The notes beneath the pieces were generated by a model that did no database searches, was not told the DNA's origin, and was given only the letters and a program-made list of their open reading frames with translations. Both the position numbers and the translations under genes were made by a program. Below, piece after piece: positions 25,067-64,000 of a DNA stretch of 64,000 bases. The stretch is from Escherichia phage T4. Position 1 is the stretch's first letter. Every line of letters starts with the position of its first letter. Location: sequence record MZ375356.1; one strand, written 5' to 3'.

Positions 25067-25739
25067 CTATTTTATACGATAGCAATCAGGCATATCATCC
25101 GCATTTATCCAATTGCGAATAGTTTTAGGACTAACTTTAAAATGCTCCGCTGCGTAATCAGGATTATCAAATTTAACGCCCTTTATACATATTGGAATAA
25201 ATTTTTTAATACCACCAAGTTTTTCAGAAATAGCTTTACGATGTGAAATCGATATAGGTTTGTTTTTTCGTGGATGAACATGTGTTTTATAATATTCATT
25301 GCGCCCTTTAACTCGCTTCGCAATAGTTTCATCAGATTGCTTAACGCCTGTTTTTGCCTTTGATATTTTTCGTTTAGCTTCCACAGTCATTCCTTCTTTT
25401 GTTCGTATTGATAACATATTACGATATGAAGGATCTTGCAAATGAACTAACTGGATTTCCTCTGCCACCAATAGCAGCATTATAGGTATCAGTTCTCATA
25501 ACGAATTCCTCATTAACTAGTAAAGCTTCCATTTTATACATCTCCTCAGATGAGGAGAAAGAATAAAGAATTTCTTTTTTAAAGTTATGAATACCATATT
25601 TTTTGATGGATTTTTTGATGTTTACGCCAGAACCCATATAACCATCGTTTTCGTCAAGAGTAGCATGAGCTCCGATGTAAATTTTTCCATTGATGATATT
25701 AGTAATTTGATATATTAAATATTTCATTTTAAACATCAC
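25067..25739 (-). pseudogene. segD: GIY-YIG homing endonuclease SegD, split into two overlapping reading frames
   Basis: N-terminal ORF (25419-25739) carries the GIY-YIG motif ([10 protein letters not shown]...GYMGSG); C-terminal ORF (25067-25480) carries the basic linker/DNA-binding repeats; 673 nt total is not a multiple of 3. Confidence 0.75.
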
Positions 25740-28716: not shown

Positions 28717-29271
28717 TATGATAATGATACTTCATTAGAAGTAACGCTTAGTGCATCATAATCTGTCGCGGTTACTTGGGCTACGCATTTAATTCTTTTT
28801 ACTCCACTTGTAGTTGGAGTATAGCTAAATGTAGAGTTAGTTTCTCCACCAACTTGTGAATCATCTACATACCACTGATACGTAGCAGATGCTCCATCAG
28901 GTTGAGAAGCTAAGGCAGCAGTAAATTGAACTGGGGTTCCAATCACTCCAGCCGCAGGACTAGCAGGAGTTACGGCTAAGGTAGTCGTCTGTGTCTTATT
29001 TTTAACTGTGATAGTTGTTGTCGCTTCAGCCGTTTCCGGGCCTCCTTCAGAAAGTGTATTTGTTGCAACTACTTTAATAGTCTTTTGACCGGCAGGTCCT
29101 TTTAGCATAACTAAAAGTTGCTTCAGCTCCATCTTGTGGAACATTATCTACGCTCCAAGCATATGTAATAGTTCCGCCTCCAGTTTGACCACTGGGTGTA
29201 GCAGTAAACTGCTTAGTTTCATCAATAACCCCTGTAGGTGTTTTAGGAGTTATATCAACTGTAAAAGTCAT
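28716..29271 (-). pseudogene. hoc: outer capsid protein Hoc, frame-disrupted and lacking the C-terminal half
   Basis: Ig-like N-terminal ORF (29074-29271, MTFTVDITPKTPTG...) and a second Ig-like ORF (28716-29144) in another frame; 556 nt covers about 185 codons, versus about 376 aa for T4 Hoc. Confidence 0.8.
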
Positions 29272-30009: not shown

Positions 30010-30538
30010 ATGTACCACTTTGTATATGAAACAACAAATCTAATAAATGGTAAAAAGTATATAGGAAAGCACTCTACTGATGACTTGAATGATGGTTACC
30101 TTGGTTCCGGTAAGGCAATTCAGCAGGCTATAAAGAAATATGGTGAAAACAATTTCTCTAGAACAATACTAAAAGAGTTTAAAACTTCCGAAGAAGCGTA
30201 CATGTATGAAGAAGAAATTATAACTCCTGAACTAATAAAAAGCAAAAATTATAATATGAAACCTGGTGGAATTGGTGGAATTGGTGGAATTGTTATGACT
30301 ACAGATGTTATAGCAAAGATGAAAGAATCTTCCGCTAAAAGATTTGAAAACTCACCGGGCACGGTATTAGGTAAAACTTGTTACTAATGGAACTAAAAAT
30401 ATTTTTATTAAACCTGGAGAACTTGTTCCAGAAGGATTTGTAAAAGGGATGGTTCATCCTAATAGAAAGTCCAGAAAAGGATGTAAAGTCAAACCGACTA
30501 CCACAGGAACTTTTTGGGTCAATAATGGCGCAAAATAA
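30010..30538 (+). pseudogene. segE: GIY-YIG homing endonuclease SegE, frame-disrupted
   Basis: 125-aa ORF with GIY-YIG motif (KKYIGKHSTD...GYLGSG) stops at 30387; the C-terminal continuation (TNGTKNIFIKPGELVPEGFVKG...) runs in the +1 frame to 30538; 529 nt is not a multiple of 3. Confidence 0.75.
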
Positions 30539-30629
30539 ATTAATACAACCAGACGGTATTATTCCCGACGGATTTATTAAAGGTCGTCTCATGAAAAGAG
30601 ATTCTAAAGGCAAATTTAGTAAGGCAATT

Positions 30630-33296: not shown

Positions 33297-33335
33297 TGTT
33301 ATTGGTTGTTATTGGATGTTATTGGATGTTATTGG
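33297..33335. repeat. four tandem 10-bp repeats (t/a)TGTTATTGG in the uvsY leader
   Basis: Direct reading: ttgttattgg ttgttattgg atgttattgg atgttattgg. Confidence 0.9.
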
Positions 33336-36853: not shown

Positions 36854-38619
36854 AAAAGCCACAAGAAATGCAAACGATGCGTAGAAAAGTTATTTCAGAT
36901 AATAAACCAACACAGGAAGCGGCTAAATCCGCTTCTAATACTTTATCTGGGCTTAATGACATATCTACGAAATTGGATGATGCTCAAGCTGCTTCTGAAT
37001 TAATAGCTCAAACTGTCGAAGAAAAATCGAATGAAATAATTGGAGCAATTGACAATGTAGAAAGCGCAGTGAGTGATACTACTGCCGGTTCTGAGTTAAT
37101 TGCTGAAACTGTCGAAATTGGCAACAATATTAATAAAGAAATCGGTGAATCGCTCGGAAGCAAATTAGATAAATTAACAAGTTTACTAGAGCAAAAAATC
37201 CAGACAGCTGGAATTCAACAGACTGGAACTAGTTTAGCTACGGTTGAAAGCGCTATTCCTGTTAAAGTCGTTGAGGATGATACTGCTGAATCTGTGGGTC
37301 CTTTATTACCAGCTCCTGAAGCAGTTAATAATGATCCTGACGCTGATTTTTTCCCTACCCCTCAGCCAGTTGAGCCAAAGCAAGAATCACCAGAAGAAAA
37401 ACAGAAAAAAGAAGCATTTAACTTAAAATTATCTCAAGCTTTAGATAAATTAACGAAGACTGTTGATTTTGGATTTAAAAAATCCATTTCAATTACTGAT
37501 AAAATATCAAGCATGCTATTTAAGTACACCGTCAGTGCTGCTATTGAAGCTGCTAAAATGACTGCAATGATATTGGCTGTTGTTGTTGGAATAGACCTTT
37601 TGATGATTCACTTTAAATACTGGTCAGATAAATTTTCAAAAGCCTGGGATTTGTTTAGTACAGACTTTACCAAATTCTCTAGCGAAACCGGAACTTGGGG
37701 TCCTTTATTACAGAGCATCTTTGATTCTATTGATAAAATTAAACAACTTTGGGAAGCGGGAGATTGGGGTGGATTGACAGTAGCTATTGTTGAAGGGCTT
37801 GGAAAGGTTCTTTTTAATTTAGGTGAACTTATTCAATTAGGTATGGCTAAATTATCTGCAGCAATTCTTCGAGTCATTCCTGGTATGAAGGATACTGCTG
37901 ATGAAGTAGAAGGAAGAGCATTAGAAAATTTCCAAAATTCTACTGGAGCATCTCTCAATAAAGAAGACCAAGAAAAAGTAGCAAATTATCAAGATAAACG
38001 AATGAATGGAGACCTTGGCCCAATAGCAGAAGGACTAGACAAAATCTCTAACTGGAAAACTCGTGCATCTAACTGGATTCGTGGTGTAGATAATAAAGAA
38101 GCGCTGACTACCGACGAAGAGCGTGCGGCAGAAGAAGAAAAATTAAAGCAACTTTCACCGGAAGAAAGAAAAAATGCTTTAATGAAGGCTAATGAAGCTC
38201 GTGCTGCGATGATTCGTTTTGAAAAATATGCCGATTCAGCTGATATGAGTAAAGACTCAACGGTTAAATCAGTTGAAGCTGCCTATGAAGACCTTAAAAA
38301 ACGGATGGATGACCCGGATAATAATTCACCGGCAGTTAAAAAAGAACTTGCTGCTAGATTTTCTAAAATTGATGCTACTTATCAAGAGCTCAAGAAAAAT
38401 CAGCCTAATGCCAAACCTGAAACTTCTGCTAAATCACCAGAAGCGAAACAAGTCCAGGTGATTGAAAAGAACAAAGCACAGCAAGCTCCTGTTCAACAAG
38501 CATCTCCTTCGATCAATAATACTAATAATGTTATTAAGAAAAATACTGTCGTTCATAATATGACACCTGTAACGAGCACGACTGCTCCTGGTGTATTTGA
38601 TGCGACTGGAGTTAATTAA
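36850..38619 (+). CDS. 29: tail length tape-measure / hub protein gp29
   Basis: 589-aa ORF at the T4 gp29 position. Confidence 0.9.
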   Translation: MKKPQEMQTMRRKVISDNKPTQEAAKSASNTLSGLNDISTKLDDAQAASELIAQTVEEKSNEIIGAIDNVESAVSDTTAGSELIAETVEIGNNINKEIGESLGSKLDKLTSLLEQKIQTAGIQQTGTSLATVESAIPVKVVEDDTAESVGPLLPAPEAVNNDPDADFFPTPQPVEPKQESPEEKQKKEAFNLKLSQALDKLTKTVDFGFKKSISITDKISSMLFKYTVSAAIEAAKMTAMILAVVVGIDLLMIHFKYWSDKFSKAWDLFSTDFTKFSSETGTWGPLLQSIFDSIDKIKQLWEAGDWGGLTVAIVEGLGKVLFNLGELIQLGMAKLSAAILRVIPGMKDTADEVEGRALENFQNSTGASLNKEDQEKVANYQDKRMNGDLGPIAEGLDKISNWKTRASNWIRGVDNKEALTTDEERAAEEEKLKQLSPEERKNALMKANEARAAMIRFEKYADSADMSKDSTVKSVEAAYEDLKKRMDDPDNNSPAVKKELAARFSKIDATYQELKKNQPNAKPETSAKSPEAKQVQVIEKNKAQQAPVQQASPSINNTNNVIKKNTVVHNMTPVTSTTAPGVFDATGVN

Positions 38620-40716: not shown

Positions 40717-41006
40717 TATTTACGGAATGAAATGAAAGCAGCAACTGAAGCAACTAAACTGTCTTCAATATAAACTTCAATTTTTACAGGAGCTTCTGAC
40801 TCAAATTTACCTGTTACTACACCCTGAAAAATACTTTCAGTCTGTTCTGGCTTTGAAAAATTTTCAGAAGGAAAAATTCCGAACTTTTTATCTGTTCCAA
40901 AAATTTTGATAAATTCATCGTAAACCGCTTCGTTAAAAGCATTATCAGCAGGAATAACGCCTTCAACTACAAGTTCTTGACCTAAAAAGCGTAAAGAAGA
41001 TTTCAT
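40716..41006 (-). CDS. hypothetical 96-aa protein (positional equivalent of T4 alt.-3)
   Basis: ORF with a Shine-Dalgarno GAGGAA upstream; directly downstream of an early promoter. Confidence 0.65.
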   Translation of the reverse strand: MKSSLRFLGQELVVEGVIPADNAFNEAVYDEFIKIFGTDKKFGIFPSENFSKPEQTESIFQGVVTGKFESEAPVKIEVYIEDSLVASVAAFISFRK

Positions 41007-41037
41007 TTTGTGTTCCTCATGTTATGTTAGTAAGACT

Positions 41038-41067
41038 ACTATAACACAACACGAGGGACTTGTAAAC
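41038..41067 (-). promoter_or_regulatory. T4 early promoter (GTTTAC-N18-TATAGT)
   Basis: Minus strand reads GTTTACAAGTCCCTCGTGTTGTGTTATAGT; part of a 53-bp block duplicated at 54227-54279. Confidence 0.7.
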
Positions 41068-41424
41068 TACATTTTGAACTTTTTAGTACGCGTAATAGGC
41101 ATGCGTCGATTTTATACTGTTTCATTGTTTGAAGAGCAGTATCAAAAACAGCATTAATGACACCAATTGGATTTCCACCCAAGTTTTTAAGCTTAACTAA
41201 TGATAGTTTCTCATTAACACCTATCATTACGATATGCATCATTTTATCGCCTGGTTTAACGTTTTATTTGTATCACCGCCAGAGGTGTATGTACAAAATC
41301 TAAATCCAGGAAGTACACTTTCTTCACCGGCTTGAATAGCAAAAATTTGTGGTATTTTATGCTTAGGATTTAAGTTAACAACCGGCGCCGAAGCGCCGTC
41401 AAATAATTCTGTAATAAGTTCCAT
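41039..41424 (-). pseudogene. tandem paralogue of the Alt N-terminus split across two frames (T4 alt.-2/alt.-1 equivalents)
   Basis: ORF 41239-41424 (MELITELFDGASAPV...CTYTSGGDTN) and ORF 41039-41242 (MMHIV...QYKIDACLLRVLKS) are collinear with Alt residues 1-125 but in different frames. Confidence 0.7.
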
Positions 41425-41427
41425 GAT

Positions 41428-43476
41428 TTATCCTTGAACGAACTTGTAAGGCATGTTTGCAATATCTATGCAAGACGCAATAATTCCAAGAGATGATTCT
41501 ACTTTCTGTTTAACATTTGATGAAACAAATGATGCAAAGTCAACTCTATCTTCTATATCACCTGTCATTGTAACCAATTCACCAGTTTCCATTAAATGGT
41601 CTCCGTCATAGATTACCGATTCGGTGAGTTCTTCTGTGGTCATAACTTCAGCTTGAATAAGCTTGTTGTTAGTTTTAACTGTTCCATCATTGTAAGATGC
41701 ATCGGTTATTTTATTAACTTTGACCATTAATCCACGTGGCAAAATGACTTCCATTTCATTTGAAGGCGCTAAACTTCCACCGGGTAAAACAACATTGACC
41801 TTATCAGCCCCAGTAATAACCCATCCAATTCCAACTAAATTATCGCTAGAATTTACAAGTCCTTCATCAGTTTTATCAATAGAAACGCTTAAACGCTTTT
41901 CGTCTGGTAAAACACCTATAGATGAATCAGTCATCCAAGTACCAAAAATATTTGGATATAATGATGTTGACACAAAGTTTCTAAAATAAAAAACTCGATT
42001 TTTTACCATTGCTTCGTATATTGAAGGTAACATTCGTTGTGAACGATACAAAGTAATACCTTTTGGTAATCGTTCACCATTTTTAAAGGCTGAATCTAAA
42101 TTATCAATAGCTTTTTCTATGTCAGATGCTGTCAAAATACTTGTACGCTCATCTGGATTATATAATCCCAAAAGAGCATTATTTATGTCTACATATCCTG
42201 AACCTACGTATTCACGAATTCCGCGTTTTTGCGCTGGTGTGTATTTAGATGAATCTTTATTTTCGACTATAGGATGTAATGACCATCCAGCGGTAAGAGC
42301 ATATCCACGTAATTCTCTTCGAATAATCTTTGTTTTTATTGCATTCCAAGAATTTTGTACTAACTCATTTGCAGCATCTTGGTTTAAATGCGAATGTTTG
42401 TTAATATTTCTTTCAAACCAAGCACCCTTATATTTTTCTAAAGTATCATCGACGATAGAAGCAATAGTTTCTAAGGTTTTTATTGAAGTAATAGATTCTT
42501 TTCGTAATCTTTCTAAAGCTTTATTTTTTATTTCTGCGTTAATAATGGATTCTTTATCTTCAGGAATTATAGAAGCTTCTCTGAATGCCATCCCAGCTGT
42601 AACACTGCTAAGAGCATTCTCTAGTGCAAATCCTGAAGTAGAAATTACCGTTAATTCATTAGAATCAGAAATTAAAGGCGCGTCCGCTGGTTTATTTAAT
42701 TCGGCCGCTGAAGCCTCAAATTTTTGAAACATTGGTGTTTCAAATCTAGAAGATTCCAATGACTGACTTTGCGCAATTGCTCTACGGGAAATTTTAACTT
42801 TAACGATTACAGCTTGGTCAGAACGTTTATCATTTTCTTGCGCAATAGATGCTGCAATTGCCTCATTTTTAGTTACTTGAGCCCCAGTATCTTTATTGAT
42901 ATAAACATCACCGACCTTCGATTCAACTTTAGTAAAGAGCTCGGTACTAATTTCCGGAACTCCTGGAATGTCTTCTAGTGATACATTTTTGCGATGTATA
43001 AGAATATATGCATACTTTTTATCGTAATCCCAGAGTTCCTTAAGAAGGACGTATCTACCACCTGAACGACTACGGATAAGTCTATCAGCAATAACTTGAA
43101 TTTGTCGAGCTTGGCCAGCAGTTTTAGACTTAAGAATACGGAGCATACAGGCATCAATTTTATACTGGCGCATTGTTTGCATTGCAACAGTAAAAACTGA
43201 ATTGATATAATTAATTGGGCTTGGACCAAGACCTTTTAATTTAGCAATTGAACCTTTAGCAGTTAATGTAAAAGGAACAATATGCATCATTTTATCGCCC
43301 ATCTTTAAATCACGATTAGTATCACCTCCAGATGTATAGGTACATAAACGAAAGCCTGGTTGTTCAATTGCATCATCAACATGAACTGAAAAAATTTGCG
43401 GTATTTTCTTCTTTGGATATAAGTTTGTAATTGGAAGAGTAGTATCTTCGTCAAATAATTCTGTAATAAGTTCCAT
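41428..43476 (-). CDS. alt: Alt ADP-ribosyltransferase (capsid-packaged, modifies host RNA polymerase)
   Basis: 682 aa from MELITELFDEDTTLPITNLYPKK. Confidence 0.9.
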   Translation of the reverse strand: MELITELFDEDTTLPITNLYPKKKIPQIFSVHVDDAIEQPGFRLCTYTSGGDTNRDLKMGDKMMHIVPFTLTAKGSIAKLKGLGPSPINYINSVFTVAMQTMRQYKIDACMLRILKSKTAGQARQIQVIADRLIRSRSGGRYVLLKELWDYDKKYAYILIHRKNVSLEDIPGVPEISTELFTKVESKVGDVYINKDTGAQVTKNEAIAASIAQENDKRSDQAVIVKVKISRRAIAQSQSLESSRFETPMFQKFEASAAELNKPADAPLISDSNELTVISTSGFALENALSSVTAGMAFREASIIPEDKESIINAEIKNKALERLRKESITSIKTLETIASIVDDTLEKYKGAWFERNINKHSHLNQDAANELVQNSWNAIKTKIIRRELRGYALTAGWSLHPIVENKDSSKYTPAQKRGIREYVGSGYVDINNALLGLYNPDERTSILTASDIEKAIDNLDSAFKNGERLPKGITLYRSQRMLPSIYEAMVKNRVFYFRNFVSTSLYPNIFGTWMTDSSIGVLPDEKRLSVSIDKTDEGLVNSSDNLVGIGWVITGADKVNVVLPGGSLAPSNEMEVILPRGLMVKVNKITDASYNDGTVKTNNKLIQAEVMTTEELTESVIYDGDHLMETGELVTMTGDIEDRVDFASFVSSNVKQKVESSLGIIASCIDIANMPYKFVQG

Positions 43477-45786: not shown

Positions 45787-45851
45787 AGGAACACGTAATA
45801 TTTCACTCGCGTGATCGCAGTGGTGAGCGAGATCGTCAATAACAAATTACG

Positions 45852-46097
45852 TTATTTCTCTTTTGCTTTTTTGAACAACTCTTCTTTTGAAGAATCATGA
45901 CTACACATCAGTACTTCTGAGAAAGCACCAGGAAAAAGAGCATTCAAATTAAATTGACGATTTAATAGAGCGTCAATAGAATCACCCAATGCTGTAACAG
46001 CAACAAAATTATAATCTTCTTTTAATTTGTTAATTACACAGAGCATCTTTATATGGAGACAAGTAACGAATAAAATCCGAACGATTGTATTTTTCAA
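45852..46097 (-). CDS. hypothetical 81-codon ORF with a non-ATG (TTG) start; may be spurious or an alternate-frame ORF
   Basis: Overlaps the tail of a longer open frame (46030-46272) in another phase. Confidence 0.3.
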   Translation of the reverse strand: MKNTIVRILFVTCLHIKMLCVINKLKEDYNFVAVTALGDSIDALLNRQFNLNALFPGAFSEVLMCSHDSSKEELFKKAKEK

Positions 46098-46272
46098 TTA
46101 ACTTGACGCCAAGTTCTTCATCACAGTTAAAGAGTTTACCAGGAGAAATAAATTTCTCATCTTGGATCATTTTTAAAATATGTTCTAACGGAAGATTATA
46201 TTTCTGAGCAAAATAAGGAAGGCCTGATTGCCAGCTTAAACATACTCCATCAATATCAGTTAATAGTAGGCT

Positions 46273-53724: not shown

Positions 53725-54221
53725 AAAGTTTTAATAACCTCTACAATATCGTCTTGAGAAAGACCGTTAATTAAAATATGATGTTCAGCTGGAGATTTAG
53801 AAATTTTAAAGCATGCCTCAACATCTTCTGCCATATCCGATGCACTACGATTTGGATTACTAATACCAAGGCGATGTTTTCCCGTCAAAGGATTAACGAT
53901 GATATAGCATTTGCAGCTATTGATATGAACATTGGGTTGAGTCTGATTAATGAACACTTCACAATCATACTTAGCAAGTTGATTTTCTAAAAAGACTTTC
54001 ATCTCTTCAACCGCATCAGGAAGCATATCACGGGCTTGCTCAAGACGACGATTTCGATATTCTTTAATGGTCGTTTTCCGCTTGACTTGCTTAGCTAAAT
54101 CTTTCTTAAGATCAGTGATATATCCAACTCGACGATTTCCTTTGAATACAGAAATCCCATCTGTAGTATCACCGTATGCTTCAACGACCATTTCAGTAGT
54201 AATAAGTTGTAAATCCATCAT
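53715..54221 (-). CDS. alc: Alc (blocks host transcription elongation on cytosine-containing DNA)
   Basis: 168-codon ORF beginning MMDLQLITTEMVVEAYGD (167 aa from the second Met); directly downstream of an early promoter. Confidence 0.85.
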   Translation of the reverse strand: MMDLQLITTEMVVEAYGDTTDGISVFKGNRRVGYITDLKKDLAKQVKRKTTIKEYRNRRLEQARDMLPDAVEEMKVFLENQLAKYDCEVFINQTQPNVHINSCKCYIIVNPLTGKHRLGISNPNRSASDMAEDVEACFKISKSPAEHHILINGLSQDDIVEVIKTLCM

Positions 54222-54249
54222 AAAGTCCTCATGTTATGTCAGTAAGACT

Positions 54250-54279
54250 ACTATAACACAACACGAGGGACTTGTAAAC
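54250..54279 (-). promoter_or_regulatory. T4 early promoter (GTTTAC-N18-TATAGT) for alc
   Basis: Identical in sequence to the promoter at 41038-41067. Confidence 0.7.
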
Positions 54280-54282
54280 AAC

Positions 54283-55870
<1,588 letters not shown>

Positions 55871-55897
55871 AATAAAATGGGCCTTGCGGCCCACTCC

Positions 55898-56400
55898 TTA
55901 AAAGTATTTTTTAAAACTCATCATAACTTTATCATCAACATCATTATCAATCTGTGCAACAAGGTAAGATGACAGTTCTACTTCTTGCGGCGCGGATTGA
56001 ACATTATCAGAATTAAGATATTCACGAATCCAAGGATATGGATGTTTAACCGGAGCATCGGTAATTGGGCATGGAAGACCGCACTGTTTCATACGAGATA
56101 CAGTTAAGTAATCAATAAAGCTCCACATGCTATTTGTATTTAATCCAGGAACATCACCATCTTTAAATAAATGAACTGCCCAGTCTTTTTCCTGGCGGTT
56201 AACTTCCATGAAAATATCAACTGCTTCTTGTTCACACTCTTGGGCAATTTTAACCCATTCATCACCATCAGTACCGGATTGAAGTTGACGAATAATATAT
56301 TGGGTGCCTTTAAGGTGAAGCTGTTCATCACGTGCAATGAACTTCATAATCTTGGCATTACCTTCCATGATTTCCATGTTCTTATGGAAGTTAAAGGTAC
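55898..56400 (-). CDS. nrdB: ribonucleotide reductase small subunit NrdB, exon 2
   Basis: In-frame continuation ...TFNFHKNMEIMEGNAKIMKFIARDEQLH...; splice junction inferred to give SFA-C-TFNF; exon 1 + exon 2 = 1167 nt (388 aa). Confidence 0.85.
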
Positions 56401-56996
56401 CGTATGTTCGATTGAGCTCGCTAATTCTCAACCCGTTCTCTTATGAACTGCTGCATGTTACCATGCAGTCCAGACTATATCACAATCCCGGAGGGATTCT
56501 CCCCATTTCGAGTCGCTTGACCCTACGTCCGAAGACTAGTCGTTGAACCTTGTTTTGCAATTGTCGCCGTGCCATCGTTTATATGTTGATGGTGATAAAT
56601 CTTTCTTATCACAATATGGACAATTCAATTGAATTCTATTTGGATTTAATTTACATCTGTCATTATGTTTTAGATAAAATCCAGGACCTTTACCAATGTG
56701 ACCACAGAAATCACATGTGATTTCTTTTTGTGCAGGATGGGTCCCGTTCTTAACCATTTCTAATGTTTTTGCTGATGTTCTTTTCTTATGTTCTTCCATC
56801 AGAATCTTTAGGTAGGTCCGTTAGCATCTATCCAAATTTTTCTATAGTTCAATTGTGCATCCTCTTAAAAGTATAATCATATTTATATTATACTAATTAA
56901 AGGTGCAAGCAAAACCTTGGCTGCTAGTTTTCCATAAAGGACTTTCCAGCAATTAAAGGAGTTTTCGATAAACGTTACCGTTTAAAGGCGCATTTT
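56401..56996 (-). mobile_element. group I self-splicing intron in nrdB (about 596 nt)
   Basis: Interrupts the conserved R2 motif FYVSFAC; 5' exon ends in U, intron ends in G; shares core sequence blocks with the td intron. Confidence 0.8.
56536..56799 (-). CDS. I-TevIII: I-TevIII remnant (intron ORF, C-terminal zinc-finger/DNA-binding part only)
   Basis: 87-aa ORF with CDFCGH...CPYC motifs and no catalytic domain. Confidence 0.6.
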   Translation of the reverse strand: MEEHKKRTSAKTLEMVKNGTHPAQKEITCDFCGHIGKGPGFYLKHNDRCKLNPNRIQLNCPYCDKKDLSPSTYKRWHGDNCKTRFND

Positions 56997-57660
56997 ACGC
57001 AAAAGATACATAAAAACGAATAGCTTCTAAGGCATTAATAACGTGCAAACAGAGGTAAAGAGATTTCATCAGATCTCGTTTAGCTCTTTGCTCAACGTCT
57101 TTATCAGCTAGAATTAGACCTTGGTCTTTATAATATTCAACCATGTCTTTAGCATTTTCCCATTCACGGGTTTTAACCAAGACATCATCGTAATATCGCC
57201 CAATGGACTCAGCACGTTTCATAATAGCTTCATCTAATACAATCTCATCAAACACCTTCGATGGATCAGTATAAAGATTTCGCATGATATGAGTATATGA
57301 ACGACTGTGAATAGTTTCACTAAAAGTCCATGTAGCAACCCATGTATCAAGGCTTGGGTCTGAAATTAATGACATAAGTACAGCAGATGGCGCACGACCC
57401 TGAATGCTATCCAAAAGTGATTGATACTTCAGGTTGTTAGTAAAAATATTTTGCTGATACTGAGGAAGCTTATTAAATTGCGCAGCATCCATCATTAAGT
57501 TTACTTCTTCAGAACGCCAAAAAAAACTGATCTGCCGCTCAATGAGTTCTTCAAATACTCGATGTCGTTGAATATCATATCGAGCTAAACCTAATCCAGA
57601 ACCAAAGAACATCGGTTCATTCAAAACATCAACTGGATTTGTATTAAAAACTGTACTCAT
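56997..57660 (-). CDS. nrdB: ribonucleotide reductase small subunit NrdB, exon 1
   Basis: MSTVFNTNPVDVLNEPMFFG...LEAIRFYVSFA followed by an in-frame stop at the start of the intron. Confidence 0.88.
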
Positions 57661-58355
57661 TTAGAATCCTTAAATTTACATTTATCATAATGCCATCTTA
57701 AAGCATTGCCTTTATTAACTTTCTTACCACAGTGCGGGCAAGGTGGATACTCTGCTCCTTGTTTAGTTCTCAAAGAAATCAAATCACGGGTTTCTTTAGT
57801 ATGAGGAACATCTCTTGTCGGAGAAATTGTACCATACATCGGATTAAGCACGCCGACTTTAGCAGCAGCTATATTCTTTTTAGCTTCTTCAGTTTTAGGC
57901 TTTCTCATCTTTTTCTTAGTTTCTTCGCTTTTAGCCCTTCCTTTGGTTGCCGCCGATATTTTGTGTTTGGTTTCTTCTGTTAAACGCAGACCTGTTTTCG
58001 CTTTTGACATTTTCAGTCTCGTTTCTTCAGAAATGACCGTACCTTTGCGAAATTGCGAATTTAACTTCTTTGCATGGGCATATATTTTAGAATGAACTTT
58101 ATAATGACGTTTCTTAGTTCCTTTCATATTGCACATCATGAAAAATGCGAATATAACAGATTTTACCGGATAAATCTTTGATAAAATAGCATGCGCTATA
58201 AAATGCTCTCTAGCTGTTAATTCAACTAAATTTTCTTTATCATCAGAACCTCCCATGCATCTAGGGATTATATGATGTGTCTCTTTATATTCGGATAAAG
58301 GTTCCCGAGCCTGAGCTCGGGAAATTAGGTCGTTATAGATTTTTTGATAATTCAT
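57657..58355 (-). CDS. mobE: HNH homing endonuclease MobE (free-standing)
   Basis: 232-aa ORF between nrdA and nrdB; HNH motif HHIIPRCMGGSDDKENLVELTAREHFIAH; C-terminal zinc-finger-like CPHCGK. Confidence 0.8.
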   Translation of the reverse strand: MNYQKIYNDLISRAQAREPLSEYKETHHIIPRCMGGSDDKENLVELTAREHFIAHAILSKIYPVKSVIFAFFMMCNMKGTKKRHYKVHSKIYAHAKKLNSQFRKGTVISEETRLKMSKAKTGLRLTEETKHKISAATKGRAKSEETKKKMRKPKTEEAKKNIAAAKVGVLNPMYGTISPTRDVPHTKETRDLISLRTKQGAEYPPCPHCGKKVNKGNALRWHYDKCKFKDSK

Positions 58356-60619
58356 TACAATTTACACGCTGCACAATCATCGGCTTTAGGAGTTTCTATT
58401 TCATAATCATCAGTACCAGAACCATCACGGGTATTATGATAATAGAAATTTTTAATGCCATAATACCATCCGTATAGCATGTCATCAATCATTATTGACA
58501 TTGGAACCTTTCCTTTTGGAAAAATCTGCGGGTCATAATATGTATTCGCTGAAGCTGATTGACATACCCATTTCAGCATAATAGCTACCTGCGTAAGATA
58601 AGGTTTATTACCTTTCTTAGCTAATTTCCATGTATAATCATAGAGGTCTATGTTATGCTCAATATTGGGCACGACTTGATTAAAGGAACCCTCTTTTGAT
58701 TCTTTAACACTTACCGGTCCACGTGGAGGCTCGATGCCGTTTGTACTGTTAGAAACTTGGGAAGATGACTCACATGGCATAAGTGCTGATAATGTGCTAT
58801 TACGGATGCCAAATAGCTTAAGGTCTTCCCGCAGCGCCGACCAGTCACAAACGTATTTTGGAGCTGCGATTTGGTCAATCTTTTTATTGTACCAGTCGAT
58901 AGGTAATTCGCCTCGAGACCAACGAGTGTCTGAATAATATTCGCAAGGTCCTTTTTCTTTGGCGAGCTTAATGGATGCTTTAATGAGTCCATACTGTAAT
59001 CTCTCAAATAGTTCATGTGTTAAATCGTTAGCATCTTCATAAGAAGCAAAGTTACTTGCCAGCCAAGCTGCATAGTTGGTAACACCTACACCGAGGTTAC
59101 GACGCTTTTTAGCTTTTTCTGCTTCAGGAACCGGATATCCTTGGTAATCCAACAGATTATCAAGAGCACGAACTTGAACTTCTGCCAATTCATTAATTTT
59201 ATCTTGGTCTTGCCAGTCAAAATTATCTAATACGAATGCAGAGAGAGTACACAATCCAATTTCAGCATCAGGGCTATTCACATCATTTGTTGGAATAGCA
59301 ATTTCACAGCACAAGTTACTCTGACGAATAGGTGCCTTTTCACGAATAAACGGAGTATAGTTATTCGTATTATCAATGAACTGCACATAAATCCTTGCTG
59401 TTCCTGAACGTTCAGTCATGAGCAATTCAAATAGTTCACGGGCTTTAATACGCTTTTTACGAATATTAGGGTCTTTTTCTGCTGCTTCGTATAATTCACG
59501 GAAACGGTCTTGGTCTTTAAAATAAGAATAATAAAGCTCGCCACCCATTTCATGCGGACTGAACAAAGTAATGTAATCGTTTTTTCCAAAACGTTCCATC
59601 ATCAAATCATTCAGTTGAACACCATAATCCATATGACGAATGCGGTTTTCTTCTACGCCTTTGTTATTTTTCAAAACGAGAAGATTTTCAACTTCCAAAT
59701 GCCAAATAGGATAATAAGCAGTAGCAGCGCCGCCACGAATTCCACCCTGTGAACATGATTTAACTGCAGTCTGAAAATGTTTCCAAAAAGGAATAACACC
59801 AGTATGGCGTACTTCACCCATGCCAATCTTAGAACCTTCGGCACGAATCATACCAACGTTAATACCAATTCCAGCGCGTTTAGAGATATATTCAACAATT
59901 GAAGCAGAAGCCTTATTGATAGACTTCAATGAATCTCCTGCCTCAATAACAACACATGAACTAAACTGTCGAGTCGGAGTACGACAACCAGCCATAATAG
60001 GAGTTGGCAATGAAATCTGTCGAGTAGATACTGCTTCATAAAAACGGATAACATGTTTTAATCTATCAACAGGTTCATCTTGATGCAGTGCCATTCCAAT
60101 AGTCATAAATGCAAACTGTGGAGTTTCATAAATTTGACCAGTGGTTTTATCTTTAACTAGATATTTTTCTTTTAATTGCATTGCCCCGGAATAAGTAAAT
60201 TCCATATCCCGTTCGTGCTTAATTTTTGATTCTAAAAATGTAATTTCTTCTGCTGAATATTTTGACAATAATTCAGGGTCGTATTTACCTGCATTTACAC
60301 AATAAGAAATATGGTCAATAAATGAACGTGGTTCATACTGCCCATAAACATGCTTACGAAGAGCAAACATTAAACAGCGTGCAGCTACATATTGATAATC
60401 AGGTTCTTCAACCGAAATAGAATTCGCAGCAGCCTTAATGACAATAGTCTGAATATCATCAGTTGTCATTCCATCACGGAGATAAGATTTAATATTTTCA
60501 TATAATTCATAAGGATCTACTGATGTTCCTTCAGCTGCCCAAGATAAAACTTTAATAATTTTTTGTGGGTCAAAGCTCTGAGAAACACCACTACTTTTGA
60601 TAACATTAATTAATTGCAT
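58355..60619 (-). CDS. nrdA: ribonucleotide reductase large subunit NrdA
   Basis: 754-aa ORF; ATP-cone N-terminus and catalytic Cys-containing segments (SNLCCEI, CESSSQVSN). Confidence 0.95.
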   Translation of the reverse strand: MQLINVIKSSGVSQSFDPQKIIKVLSWAAEGTSVDPYELYENIKSYLRDGMTTDDIQTIVIKAAANSISVEEPDYQYVAARCLMFALRKHVYGQYEPRSFIDHISYCVNAGKYDPELLSKYSAEEITFLESKIKHERDMEFTYSGAMQLKEKYLVKDKTTGQIYETPQFAFMTIGMALHQDEPVDRLKHVIRFYEAVSTRQISLPTPIMAGCRTPTRQFSSCVVIEAGDSLKSINKASASIVEYISKRAGIGINVGMIRAEGSKIGMGEVRHTGVIPFWKHFQTAVKSCSQGGIRGGAATAYYPIWHLEVENLLVLKNNKGVEENRIRHMDYGVQLNDLMMERFGKNDYITLFSPHEMGGELYYSYFKDQDRFRELYEAAEKDPNIRKKRIKARELFELLMTERSGTARIYVQFIDNTNNYTPFIREKAPIRQSNLCCEIAIPTNDVNSPDAEIGLCTLSAFVLDNFDWQDQDKINELAEVQVRALDNLLDYQGYPVPEAEKAKKRRNLGVGVTNYAAWLASNFASYEDANDLTHELFERLQYGLIKASIKLAKEKGPCEYYSDTRWSRGELPIDWYNKKIDQIAAPKYVCDWSALREDLKLFGIRNSTLSALMPCESSSQVSNSTNGIEPPRGPVSVKESKEGSFNQVVPNIEHNIDLYDYTWKLAKKGNKPYLTQVAIMLKWVCQSASANTYYDPQIFPKGKVPMSIMIDDMLYGWYYGIKNFYYHNTRDGSGTDDYEIETPKADDCAACKL

Positions 60620-60936
60620 AAGTCCTCAACTTGAAAATCGTCTTTAAACAATCGGTTAACTATATGAGCTATTATATCACCATGACACGGCTTTGGTTTA
60701 CATGTGCATCCTAGCCTCATTCCACGTAAAGGCTCTAAATGTGCTTTAGTTATTTCTCCGGATTTAATTCGACGTATAAAATCTTTTTTGAATAATTCAA
60801 TGGCAGCCTCCCGGCTGCCAGCATCTTTACCGACGTAATTTCCCCAAAATGTACCGCGGTGAATATTAACATCAAAGTCGGATTTATATTTATTCACTAC
60901 CCGGCATAGACGGCCCACGCTGGAATAATTCGTCAT
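60610..60936 (-). CDS. hypothetical 108-aa protein (nrdA.1 position)
   Basis: ORF; C-x-C...C-H cluster near the C-terminus. Confidence 0.55.
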
Positions 60937-61165
60937 ATTGTTTTTCCGTTAAAACAGTAATATCGTAGTAACAGTCAGAAGAAGTTTTAACTGTGGAAAT
61001 TTTATTATCAAAATACTCACGAGTCATTTTATGAGTATAGTATTTTTTACCATAAATGGTAATAGGCTGTTCTGGTCCTGGAACTTCTAACTCGCTTGGG
61101 TTAGGAAGTGTAAAAAGAACTACACCAGAAGTATCTTTAAATCGTAAAATCATATATCCTCGCAA
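60890..61165 (-). CDS. hypothetical 91-aa protein (nrdA.2 position)
   Basis: ORF overlapping the next gene by 47 nt. Confidence 0.5.
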
Positions 61166-61173
61166 TAATAAAA

Positions 61174-61485
61174 TTACACCGCCATCTTTCCTTTAATAGG
61201 AGGGTGTGATACATAGTTGTTAAGAACGAAATCTTTAGGCCTAAGTTTAAGAACATATTTTAATTGTTCTTTAGTAGAAAGATATCGGAATTTATAAGGT
61301 AGACCACTTATTACCAGCTCACAAAGCTCTTTAGGTTCACGCCTCAAAATTTCTTTACATTGTTCTACGTGATTCATATAGATATGAGTATTACCACCAG
61401 AAAATATCAAATCCCCTGGAATAAGATTACACATCTTAGCTACAATATGAACTAACGTAGCATATGACGCAATATTAAACGGTAG
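61174..61485 (-). CDS. td: thymidylate synthase, exon 2
   Basis: Begins [16 protein letters not shown]..., completing the conserved DVFLG|LPFNIASYA motif; exons total 861 nt (286 aa). Confidence 0.92.
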
Positions 61486-62493
61486 CATTATGTTCAGATA
61501 AGGTCGTTAATCTTACCCCGGAATTATATCCAGCTGCATGTCACCATGCAGAGCAGACTATATCTCCAACTTGTTAAAGCAAGTTGTCTATCGTTTCGAG
61601 TCACTTGACCCTACTCCCCAAAGGGATAGTCGTTAGGCATTTATGTAGAACCAATTCCATTTATCAGATTTTACACGATAAGTAACTAATCCAGACGAAA
61701 TTTTAAAATGTCTAGCTGCATCTGCTGCACAATCAAAAATAACCCCATCACATGAAATCTTTTTAATATTACTAGGCTTTTTACCTTTCATCTTTTCTGA
61801 TATTTTAGATTTAGTTATGTCTGAATGCTTATGATTAAAGAATGAATTATTTTCACCTGAACGATTTCTGCATTTACTACAAGTATAAGCAGAAGTTTGT
61901 ATGCGAACACCGCACTTACAAAACTTATGGGTTTCTGGATTCCAACGCCCGTTTTTACTTCCGGGTTTACTGTAAAGAGCTTTCCGACCATCAGGTCCAA
62001 GTTTAAGCATCTTAGCTTTAACAGTTTCAGAACGTTTCTTAATAATTTCTTCTTTTAATGGATGCGTAGAACATGTATCACCAAACGTTGCATCAATATT
62101 GTATCCATTAATTTTAGAAAGCTCTTTAATCCAAAAATTTTCTCGTTCAATAATCAAATCTTTCTCATATGGAATTTCTTCCAAAATAGAACATAAACAC
62201 ATTACCATGTTTGTTAAAAGACCTCTGAAGTTTTATAGAAGAATGGCATCCTTTTTCTAAATCTTTAAAATGCCTCTTCCATCTCTTTTCAAAATCTTTA
62301 GCACTTCCTACATATACTTTATTGTTTAAAGTATTTTTAATCTGATAAATTCCGCTTTTCATAAATACCTCTTTAAATATAGAAGTATTTATTAAAGGGC
62401 AGTCCTACAATTTAGCACGGGATTGTCTACTAGAGAGGTTCCCCGTTTAGATAGATTACAAGTATAAGTCACCTTATACTCAGGCCTCAATTA
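61486..62493 (-). mobile_element. group I self-splicing intron in td (1008 nt here) carrying I-TevI
   Basis: Minus strand: exon ...CTTGGGT | TAATTGAGGCCTGAGTATAAGGTGAC... to ...ACATAATG | CTACCG; the 5' sequence is recognised as the td intron. Confidence 0.9.
61633..62362 (-). pseudogene. I-TevI: GIY-YIG homing endonuclease I-TevI, frame-disrupted
   Basis: N-terminal ORF MKSGIYQIKNTLNNKVYVGSAKDFEKRWKRH...NKHGNVF then a frame change; the C-terminal ORF carries the zinc finger CKCGVRIQTSAYTCSKC and DNA-binding domain; 730 nt is not a multiple of 3. Confidence 0.8.
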
Positions 62494-63663
<1,170 letters not shown>

Positions 63664-63685
63664 TCAATGACACATAATATTTTCC

Positions 63686-63928
63686 TCAAACAGACTTTTT
63701 CACAATTTTCCAATCAGCTTTAAACTGCTCGACGTCAGAATGGTAAATCCAAAATCCTGCGCTTTCTCCGTCTTCATAAAGAGGACATCCATCGCATTCA
63801 TCTTCCCATCCCATATCACGTAAAAGATGTTCAGCTTTTTCAACAAGTTCAGAATCTTTACCGATGATATTAAAATACCATTTACCTCTAACTTCTGAAT
63901 CTTTGATGCTCTGGCGTTGTAATCTCAT
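63686..63928 (-). CDS. hypothetical 80-aa protein (frd.1 position)
   Basis: ORF; position only. Confidence 0.5.
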   Translation of the reverse strand: MRLQRQSIKDSEVRGKWYFNIIGKDSELVEKAEHLLRDMGWEDECDGCPLYEDGESAGFWIYHSDVEQFKADWKIVKKSV

Positions 63929-64000
63929 TTTATTCTCCTTAGCAAGCTTTAATCAAAAGATATAAACAGACCAACATAACTGCTGCCATAATATAAGGTG

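Follow-up and report, generated by a model that had tools for sequence, protein, structure and literature searches.

Endonuclease gene lesions beside the td and nrdB group I introns of a T4 genome probably derived from laboratory Cas9 passage

Results

Relationship of the window to mutant T4 clones

The 64,000-nucleotide stretch of Escherichia phage T4 DNA analysed here (record MZ375356.1; the window) most probably belongs to a laboratory Cas9-passaged T4 lineage and not to wild-type phage, a reading to which we give a probability of about 0.9 from sequence comparison. Its lesions would be laboratory-derived, in a phage that carries two known introns, those of td and nrdB. The different states of the homing endonuclease genes found side by side are mostly a laboratory by-product, and natural decay among these genes is limited to I-TevIII alone.

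Window identity to T4 records ranges from 99.7 to 99.9%, and the window differs from every T4 record in the collection compared. The closest match is OL964745, deposited as "Mutant Escherichia phage T4 clone T4_7t1", and the annotation of that record cites 'T4583L_' locus tags. T4_583L is a mutant named in CiPGr, a Cas9 genome-reduction study of T4 (Yuan et al. 2022, PMC9825161); the connection between OL964745 and the study is made through clone naming. The CiPGr hosts carried Cas9 together with guide and donor libraries against non-essential genes, serial passage exceeded 2000 generations overall, and 'one- or two-base deletions in T4 only' were reported (PMC9825161). Among the CiPGr T4 mutants, OL964745 (T4_7t1) has most of the small deletions and the hoc deletion in common with the window, and the lesion pattern of the window matches the deletions reported in the study. 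The window and OL964745 differ at about 19 sites over the 34 kb compared, and each has private lesions. The window is without the mobE lesion and the extra I-TevI hits of OL964745, and one segE site carries different 3-nt deletions in the two clones. We infer the origin of the window from this sibling clone.

The lesion pattern was determined against modern wild-type T4 (MT984581). The window carries 39 indels versus 20 substitutions, and 2-nt deletions make up most of the indels. Essential genes account for 56% of the coding sequence and contain none of the 21 frameshifting indels (P = 3.5e-8); the sole indel to fall in any essential gene, a 3-nt deletion in gene 29, keeps the reading frame. 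The lesions are bunched among a few dispensable genes (P about 0.002), with five in segE, four in 30.2, and three in I-TevI, and 2-nt deletions also occur in the unrelated dispensable genes hoc, 30.2, 30.7, 30.8, cd.3, cd.4, and frd. The window has the two marks of a CiPGr lineage: derived lesions in common with a deposited mutant clone, and frameshifting indels confined to non-essential genes. In the proposed history, the lineage would have been passaged on Cas9 hosts bearing the guide and donor libraries against non-essential genes, and the breaks in I-TevI, segD, and segE, together with an extra deletion in the I-TevIII remnant, would have arisen during the CiPGr experiment.

Origin of the small deletions

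CRISPR-escape mutations are the cause of the small deletions preferred by the CiPGr authors (PMC9825161). The proportion of deletions within 1 nt of a possible SpCas9 NGG cut was 0.29 compared to 0.30 under the null, in a test over all possible cuts in which the GG/CC background was too dense for this proportion to speak for or against CRISPR escape. Five of the 28 deletions are 15 nt or more away from every possible SpCas9 NGG cut. With these distant deletions, CRISPR escape is unlikely to be the full explanation. A laboratory route other than Cas9 escape, in which synthesis errors in the 50-bp homology arms of chip-made donor cassettes were carried into the phage by the active recombination of T4 or slippage occurred under relaxed selection, is possible but on balance doubtful. 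It is favoured by the error-free share of the cloned cassettes, which was only 42% (PMC9825161), by deletions that are as near to NGG cuts as random positions, and by the five distant deletions, for which no NGG protospacer offers a seed or PAM position. The small intergenic deletions are all found no more than 50 nt from where a dispensable gene ends, which is the expected place for the arms of whole-gene deletions, but this proximity is weak evidence because T4 intergenic regions are short. An arm error should also usually bring in the deletion that the cassette was designed for, of 100 bp or of the whole gene, and such deletions are absent at the sites concerned; the preference of the CiPGr authors for escape mutations is a further point against it. 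The donor-arm or slippage route is a variant of the laboratory explanation and differs from it in mechanism alone.

The indels could instead be sequencing or assembly artefacts in genes that are really wild-type, but this is very unlikely. Many deletions fall within short AT-rich repeats, for example TATA or ACGACG, which makes slippage or alignment errors plausible, and T4 DNA is heavily modified. Errors of this kind should be everywhere, yet the frameshifting indels spare the essential genes. Most of the lesions are also present in the independently assembled sibling, and the private lesions of each clone are as expected of a lineage. The population reads in the source paper likewise showed such deletions (PMC9825161). 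The artefact explanation is rejected on the essential-versus-dispensable distribution of the lesions and on their sharing with the sibling clone.

Lesions in the homing endonuclease genes

I-TevI normally cuts intron-less td alleles, and the intron is then copied in. The I-TevI gene in the window (GIY-YIG family; 61633..62362, minus strand) is disrupted. A 2-nt deletion at 62195 shifts the frame after residue 56, in line with the frame break in the original prediction. The N-terminal leftover is a 65-residue fragment (62165-62362) whose PF01541 match is limited to profile positions 2-43 out of 78. Two in-frame 3-nt deletions follow at 62119 and 62094, and the zinc-finger and DNA-binding part (I-TevI_ZnF and I-TevI_DNA-bd) persists solely in another frame (61633-62208). 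Wild-type I-TevI has a complete GIY-YIG domain in frame with the zinc finger and the DNA-binding domain; the window does not. The three I-TevI deletions of 2, 3, and 3 nt account for both the truncated endonuclease and a td intron of 1008 instead of 1016 nt. Compared to the wild-type T4 td intron with I-TevI, the locus, boundaries, ribozyme core, and exons are the same, and the difference lies in the I-TevI ORF, which is intact in the wild type and carries three laboratory-derived deletions here.

The two free-standing GIY-YIG genes are also frame-broken, in agreement with the original prediction. The segD gene (25067..25736, minus strand) has a 2-nt deletion at 25448, which breaks the frame after about residue 96. 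The segE gene (30010..30627, plus strand) has a 3-nt deletion together with a 9-nt tandem duplication in the region of about 30253-30272, and three 2-nt deletions follow at 30382, 30533, and 30626, which makes five lesions. Activity has been shown experimentally for I-TevI and SegE, and SegD is listed without an activity test (PMC2988022 Table 1).

The free-standing HNH homing endonuclease gene mobE (57657..58355, minus strand) is intact, as predicted. It encodes 232 residues with PF01844 HNH and NUMOD3 domains and is identical to mobE of modern wild-type T4. It corresponds to mobE plus nrdB.1 in the old T4 RefSeq annotation, where two single-base errors split the gene. MobE nicks intron-less nrdB, and the stranded nrdB intron is carried along by co-conversion (PMC2790892). 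The location of mobE between nrdA and nrdB is the same here as in the MobE trans-homing system (Wilson and Edgell 2009, PMC2790892), from which this clone shows no difference, whereas mobE in the sibling OL964745 is broken by a 2-nt deletion. The intact state of mobE is clone-specific.

The I-TevIII remnant ORF (56536..56799, minus strand) encodes 87 residues, compared to 97 residues from an ATG at 56826 in the wild type. It corresponds to residues 184-269 of a 269-residue full-length homologue. The HNH_3 domain of that homologue spans residues 4-48 and is missing from the T4 remnant, which bears out the prediction that only a C-terminal part survives. A Pfam search with the remnant gave zero hits, and the HNH catalytic motif is absent from it. 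The full-length version occurs in phage RB3 and relatives; relative to the nrdB intron of RB3 and TadeuszReichstein (1089 nt), the T4 version lacks about 491 nt, a natural deletion in which the HNH domain was lost. The window shares its locus, boundaries, core, and natural deletion of about 491 nt with the wild-type T4 nrdB intron and its defective I-TevIII, and differs from it by one extra 2-nt deletion at about 56813. This additional deletion is laboratory-derived and breaks up the start region annotated for the remnant ORF.

The original prediction read these genes as several stages of selfish-element decay side by side. That reading holds for I-TevIII and is not supported for I-TevI, segD, and segE, which are intact in wild-type T4 (NC_000866 and MT984581). 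Homing endonuclease genes are expected to degenerate after fixation in a population, and I-TevIII is a genuine natural deletion derivative that is present in every T4 record compared and is described in the literature. Spontaneous degeneration of I-TevI, segD, and segE to different stages in a natural T4 lineage is nevertheless extremely unlikely. All three genes are intact in all of the wild-type T4 records compared, and the one record that shares their lesions is deposited as a mutant clone (OL964745). The same 2-nt type of deletion recurs in unrelated dispensable genes with substitutions nearly absent, and three to five independent lesions per gene on a background that is about 99.9% wild-type do not fit slow neutral decay. 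A uniform mutator lineage was considered and rejected on the by-gene clustering of the lesions.

The td and nrdB introns

The T4 intron RNAs fold a P3-P9 core, excise themselves, and restore the reading frames of NrdB and thymidylate synthase. The td intron (61486..62493, minus strand; 1008 nt) is flanked by exon 1 (62494..63042) and exon 2 (61174..61485), both on the minus strand and both of wild-type sequence. Local BLAST with td of the intron-less phage T2 places the exon junction at 62494|61485. Joining the exons gives an uninterrupted thymidylate synthase ORF of 286 residues that matches the PDB 1TIS sequence. U62494 precedes the 5' splice site, with exon UUGGGU paired to intron GCCUGA and a U.G wobble in P1, and the intron ends in AAUG with its terminal G at 61486. 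The nrdB intron (56401..56996, minus strand) is 596 nt long, compared to 598 nt in wild-type T4, and lies between exon 1 (56997..57660), which has a P50S missense change at 57513 relative to the wild type, and exon 2 (55898..56400), both on the minus strand. Alignment to nrdB of the intron-less phage RB68 leaves a single gap at exactly 56996..56401 (596 nt), and the joined exons form an uninterrupted 388-residue NrdB ORF that aligns continuously to E. coli R2. U56997 precedes the 5' splice site, with exon GCGU paired to intron GCGC, again giving a U.G wobble in P1, and the intron ends in UACG with its terminal G at 56401. Stop codons are found directly after the 5' splice sites of both introns. 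The two group I introns that had been predicted are upheld by these comparisons, in which the intron-less alleles give exact boundaries and the joined exons are in frame.

Core structure was examined by sequence alignment and covariation. The 3' catalytic core of the nrdB intron (56401..56544, minus strand) comprises P7, P7.1, P7.2, P3', P8, P7', P9, and the 3' tail, and includes the blocks shared with td. The shared strings quoted in the original prediction are present, and nrdB 56450-56544 aligns to td 61533-61634 (72.5% over 102 columns, E = 4e-7 versus the whole 64-kb window); this is the sole significant non-self match in the window. In an alignment of six related introns, 198 of 198 cells were paired, a percentage that is biased upward because the structure was modelled on td. 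This bias does not touch the compensatory changes in the other introns, and compensatory double changes were found in 12 of 33 pairs. None of 500 shuffles reached as high a value, and slid controls paired at 29-40%. P3 was counted separately, as the MAFFT core alignment displaces it by a single column between two subgroups of the introns, and it forms six of six pairs in each of the six introns with differing sequences. The helices P3, P4, P5, P7, P8, and P9 occur in canonical order with covariation. The P7.1 and P7.2 hairpins, which lie between P7 and P3' and are the signature of subgroup IA2, are present in both td and nrdB, with two compensatory pairs in P7.1 and a U-A to C-G change in P7.2. 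Together with the intron-less alleles and the rejoined exons, these alignments confirm subgroup IA2 group I cores in both introns.

An Rfam scan had been put forward as the check for group I structure, with a negative outcome named as a refutation, and it gave zero hits over the whole window at the gathering threshold (RF00028 cutoff 50 bits). Permissive scans detected significant RF00028 matches below this cutoff in the td intron (40.3 bits, E = 1e-7, 61534-61764) and in the nrdB intron (35.7 bits, E = 2e-7, 56451-56691). The matches to the RF00028 Intron_gpI model (E about 1e-7) take in J8/7 and the P3'-P8-P7'-P9 segment, but the 5' half is mis-assigned. The model is broken by the ORF in the P6 loop and by the IA2-specific P7.1/P7.2 insert. 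We take the Rfam miss to reflect a limitation of the model with ORF-bearing IA2 introns, and do not count it against group I membership. In practical terms, RF00028 at its gathering cutoff misses both of the classic T4 introns.

Discussion

The biology of these loci is already known. Textbooks or papers describe the td and nrdB introns of T4 and the homology between them, as well as the I-TevIII deletion and trans-homing by MobE. The window shows that a stretch of DNA in which selfish genes seem to have turned into pseudogenes naturally can come from an engineered laboratory genome, and that provenance and comparison to a wild-type reference should precede any evolutionary reading. Each T4 intron carries a homing endonuclease ORF in a peripheral loop, mobE stands between nrdA and nrdB, and I-TevIII of T4 lost its HNH domain through the natural internal deletion of about 491 nt. 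It is conceivable, though we hold it only tentatively, that the window records an accidental long-term experiment in which endonuclease-dead td and nrdB introns were retained through CiPGr passage, with their cores untouched and their ORF loops hit four times. Separately, the many 2-nt deletions far from any NGG site could mark a mutational route distinct from Cas9 escape, for instance synthesis errors in donor arms that T4 recombination brought in.

Guanosine-dependent self-splicing is experimentally established for wild-type T4 td and nrdB (summarised in PMC2988022). The intron lesions in the window are all in the ORF loops and none are in the ribozyme cores. With this location, td exons of wild-type sequence, and a single missense change in the nrdB exons, we would expect splicing to proceed normally, and we infer that it is probably retained in these alleles.

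Intron boundaries and core structure

The td intron lies on the minus strand at 61486-62493 (splice-site context cttgggt/taattgagg...cataatg/ctacc, slashes marking the splice sites), and the nrdB intron lies on the same strand at 56401-56996 (ttgcgt/aaaatgcgc...acatacg/gtacc). Alignment to the intron-less nrdB of phage RB68 opened one 596-nt gap at exactly 56996..56401, and comparison with the intron-less td of phage T2 showed that the td exons adjoin exactly at 62494/61485. Joining the exons gives uninterrupted frames for NrdB (388 aa) and thymidylate synthase (TS; 286 aa); without splicing, read-through meets a stop directly past the 5' splice site in both introns. All 286 residues of the rejoined TS align with the T4 thymidylate synthase crystal sequence (1TIS) with one difference, and the rejoined NrdB aligns with E. 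coli R2 with no gap at the exon junction. These data show that the intron coordinates of the original prediction are exact.

The strings quoted in that prediction as core blocks common to both introns were found, and a 102-column alignment of nrdB intron 56450-56544 with td intron 61533-61634 shows 72.5% identity (E=4e-7, searched against the whole window). No other significant non-self match was detected within the whole window. The Rfam scan proposed as a check reported no hit anywhere in the 64 kb at the gathering threshold, and sub-threshold matches to the group I intron model RF00028 were present in both introns. The td intron was matched at 61534-61764 under permissive settings (40.3 bits, E=1e-7) and the nrdB intron, scanned alone, at 56451-56691 (35.7 bits, E=2e-7), both under the 50-bit cutoff. 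The alignments cover J6/7-P7, P3', P8, J8/7-P7', and P9. The scores stay under the cutoff because the model takes P7.1/P7.2 as an insertion and mis-assigns the 5' half, the true one being several hundred nucleotides upstream, beyond the endonuclease ORF. At the gathering cutoff both classic T4 introns are missed, a false-negative result for IA2 introns that contain an ORF.

Covariation bears out the identification of two group I introns. The core from P3 to P9, with the P6 loop and ORF cut out, was aligned for the window td and nrdB introns, T4 nrdD, and three distant introns that had matched the core block only (Pectobacterium phage CB7, Klebsiella phage K54_rec6, and Pectobacterium phage Momine). 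Standard pairs occupy 198/198 cells over P4, P5, P7, P7.1, P7.2, P8, and P9, a percentage inflated because the structure was based on the known td fold. Both sides are changed in 12 of 33 pairs, and the compensatory changes in introns other than td are independent of that bias. In 500 shuffles these values were never equalled, and pairing fell to 29-40% once the partner was slid by 1-3 columns. P3, tallied apart owing to a register offset of one column, pairs 6/6 in each of the six introns with five different sequences. Both the td and the nrdB intron have the 5' splice site U.G wobble and the terminal G, and their features place them in subgroup IA2.

The DNA polymerase genes of CB7 (KY514263.1, about 40780-41530) and K54_rec6 (PQ569692.1) are split by T4-like IA2 introns with HNH ORFs, and Momine (MH807816.1) carries a related intron. 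The three records annotate none of them as introns.

Endonuclease genes and splicing

The five homing-endonuclease genes had been read as stages of selfish-element decay. That reading holds for I-TevIII, the nrdB-intron ORF. Against the 1089-nt intron of phage TadeuszReichstein, the T4 intron aligns in two segments (1-215 and 201-596) and lacks about 491 nt. The full-length homologue is a 269-aa ORF with a TTG start and HNH_3 at aa 4-48; the T4 ORF equals aa 184-269 (98% identity), a C-terminal remnant that has lost HNH_3 and in which no Pfam domain was found. This deletion is natural and already published; also known already are the T4 td and nrdB introns with their homology, and MobE trans-homing. 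A perfect 20-nt palindrome, AGAAATCACATGTGATTTCT, lies at 56706-56725 within the remnant ORF and recurs in the full-length TadeuszReichstein intron. The free-standing gene mobE (57657-58355) is intact as predicted: it encodes 232 aa, contains HNH and NUMOD3 domains, and matches modern wild-type T4 exactly. It is a single ORF in the window and modern T4 records, and is divided into mobE and nrdB.1 in NC_000866.4 because of two single-base differences (window 57919 and 58002).

I-TevI, segD, and segE are frame-broken, as had been described. I-TevI, the td-intron ORF, is shifted after residue 56 by a 2-nt deletion at 62195 and carries two in-frame 3-nt deletions at 62119 and 62094; its first frame keeps only a partial GIY-YIG match, with the zinc-finger and DNA-binding domains in another frame. 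SegD has a 2-nt deletion at 25448, and segE has a 3-nt deletion, a 9-nt tandem duplication, and three 2-nt deletions. Natural decay does not extend to these three genes: all are intact in wild-type records NC_000866 and MT984581, and their lesions are shared only with the mutant clone OL964745. PMC2988022 (Table 1) gives I-TevI, MobE, and SegE as active in experiments and SegD as untested. An ATG-initiated 191-aa ORF (61633-62208) encoding linker, zinc finger, and DNA-binding domain is left past the I-TevI frameshift. If this ORF is translated, its product could retain binding to the I-TevI operator or homing site while being unable to cut.

All four intron lesions are in ORF loops (td intron positions 299, 375, and 400; nrdB intron position 184), and none falls inside the cores, taken as about 1-95 at the 5' end and from 860 (td) or 453 (nrdB) at the 3' end. 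The td exons are wild type and the nrdB exons carry one missense change, P50S. Because of these locations and exon sequences, td and nrdB splicing would be retained in this clone. The P50S change (57513, against wild-type T4) replaces a proline conserved in E. coli R2 (FFWRPEEV) and is also present in OL964745.

Lesion pattern and lineage

Megablast searches of phage genomes with 54000-64000 and 24000-48000 gave 99.6-99.9% identity to Escherichia phage T4. The top record in both searches was not wild-type T4; it was the mutant clone T4_7t1 (OL964745.1; 159,752 bp). The window spans gene 6 to frd.1, its position 7 being equivalent to 81500 in NC_000866.4. Compared to wild-type MT984581, it has 39 indels, most of them 2-nt deletions, and only 20 substitutions; no small indels of this kind occur in the first 24 kb (genes 6-23). 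None of 21 frameshifting indels lies in essential or structural coding sequence, which is 56% of coding (P=3.5e-8). The sole indel in an essential gene is a mutant-specific, in-frame 3-nt deletion at 38320 in gene 29 (tail-length determinator). Lesions cluster among dispensable genes, leaving 19.9 of 27.7 kb untouched where 13.7 kb would be expected (P about 0.002 for dispersion). Several genes were hit repeatedly (segE 5, 30.2 4, I-TevI 3, 30.8 2, cd.3 2), and like lesions break hoc, frd, 30.7, cd.4, and others. Most lesions are common to OL964745, each clone has private ones, and one segE site carries different 3-nt deletions in the two.

The pattern is consistent with specific dispensable genes having been selected against repeatedly. 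It does not fit slow natural decay and excludes random sequencing error. In a Cas9 genome-reduction study (CiPGr; Yuan et al. 2022, PMC9825161), T4 went through as many as 600 transfers on E. coli with SpCas9; the host libraries had up to eight spacers for each non-essential gene and 2x50-bp donor arms. OL964745 is tied to that study by its annotation, which gives 'T4583L_199' and 'T4583L_205' as BLAST sources, and by the mutant T4_583L named in the paper. From this sibling clone we infer that the window would also be of CiPGr origin. The observations of the original prediction are confirmed and its interpretation is partly supported; the apparent multi-stage decay is for the most part a consequence of the genome having been engineered.

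Origin of the small deletions

T4 can escape Cas9 via small deletions at mini-homologies (PMC8262927). Deletions in the window are not enriched within 1 nt of possible NGG cut sites (0.29 observed, 0.30 null). Five 2-3-nt deletions, at window 45839-46262 and elsewhere (NC_000866 127865, 127881, 114905, 145746, and 131545), are 15-37 nt away from the nearest possible SpCas9 NGG cut site and cannot be simple protospacer, PAM, or seed escape mutations. Synthesis-error deletions in the donor arms, carried into the phage by recombination, are a possible alternative to Cas9 escape, since only 42% of cloned cassettes were error-free; the distance of some deletions from any cut site also favors this alternative.

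Other changes were noted in the window. Hoc has an internal deletion of about 570 nt (junction 28722-28729) and a separate 2-nt deletion at 29106, both also in OL964745. The frame of frd (dihydrofolate reductase; 63039-63618) is broken by a 2-nt deletion at 63330, and the frd-frd.1 spacer has two more at 63624 and 63672. A 20-nt insertion at 33307, in the uvsY-gene 25 spacer adjoining oriF, consists of two extra copies of TGTTATTGGA. OL964745 differs there by one further 10-nt copy, indicating instability of the tandem repeat within this lineage.
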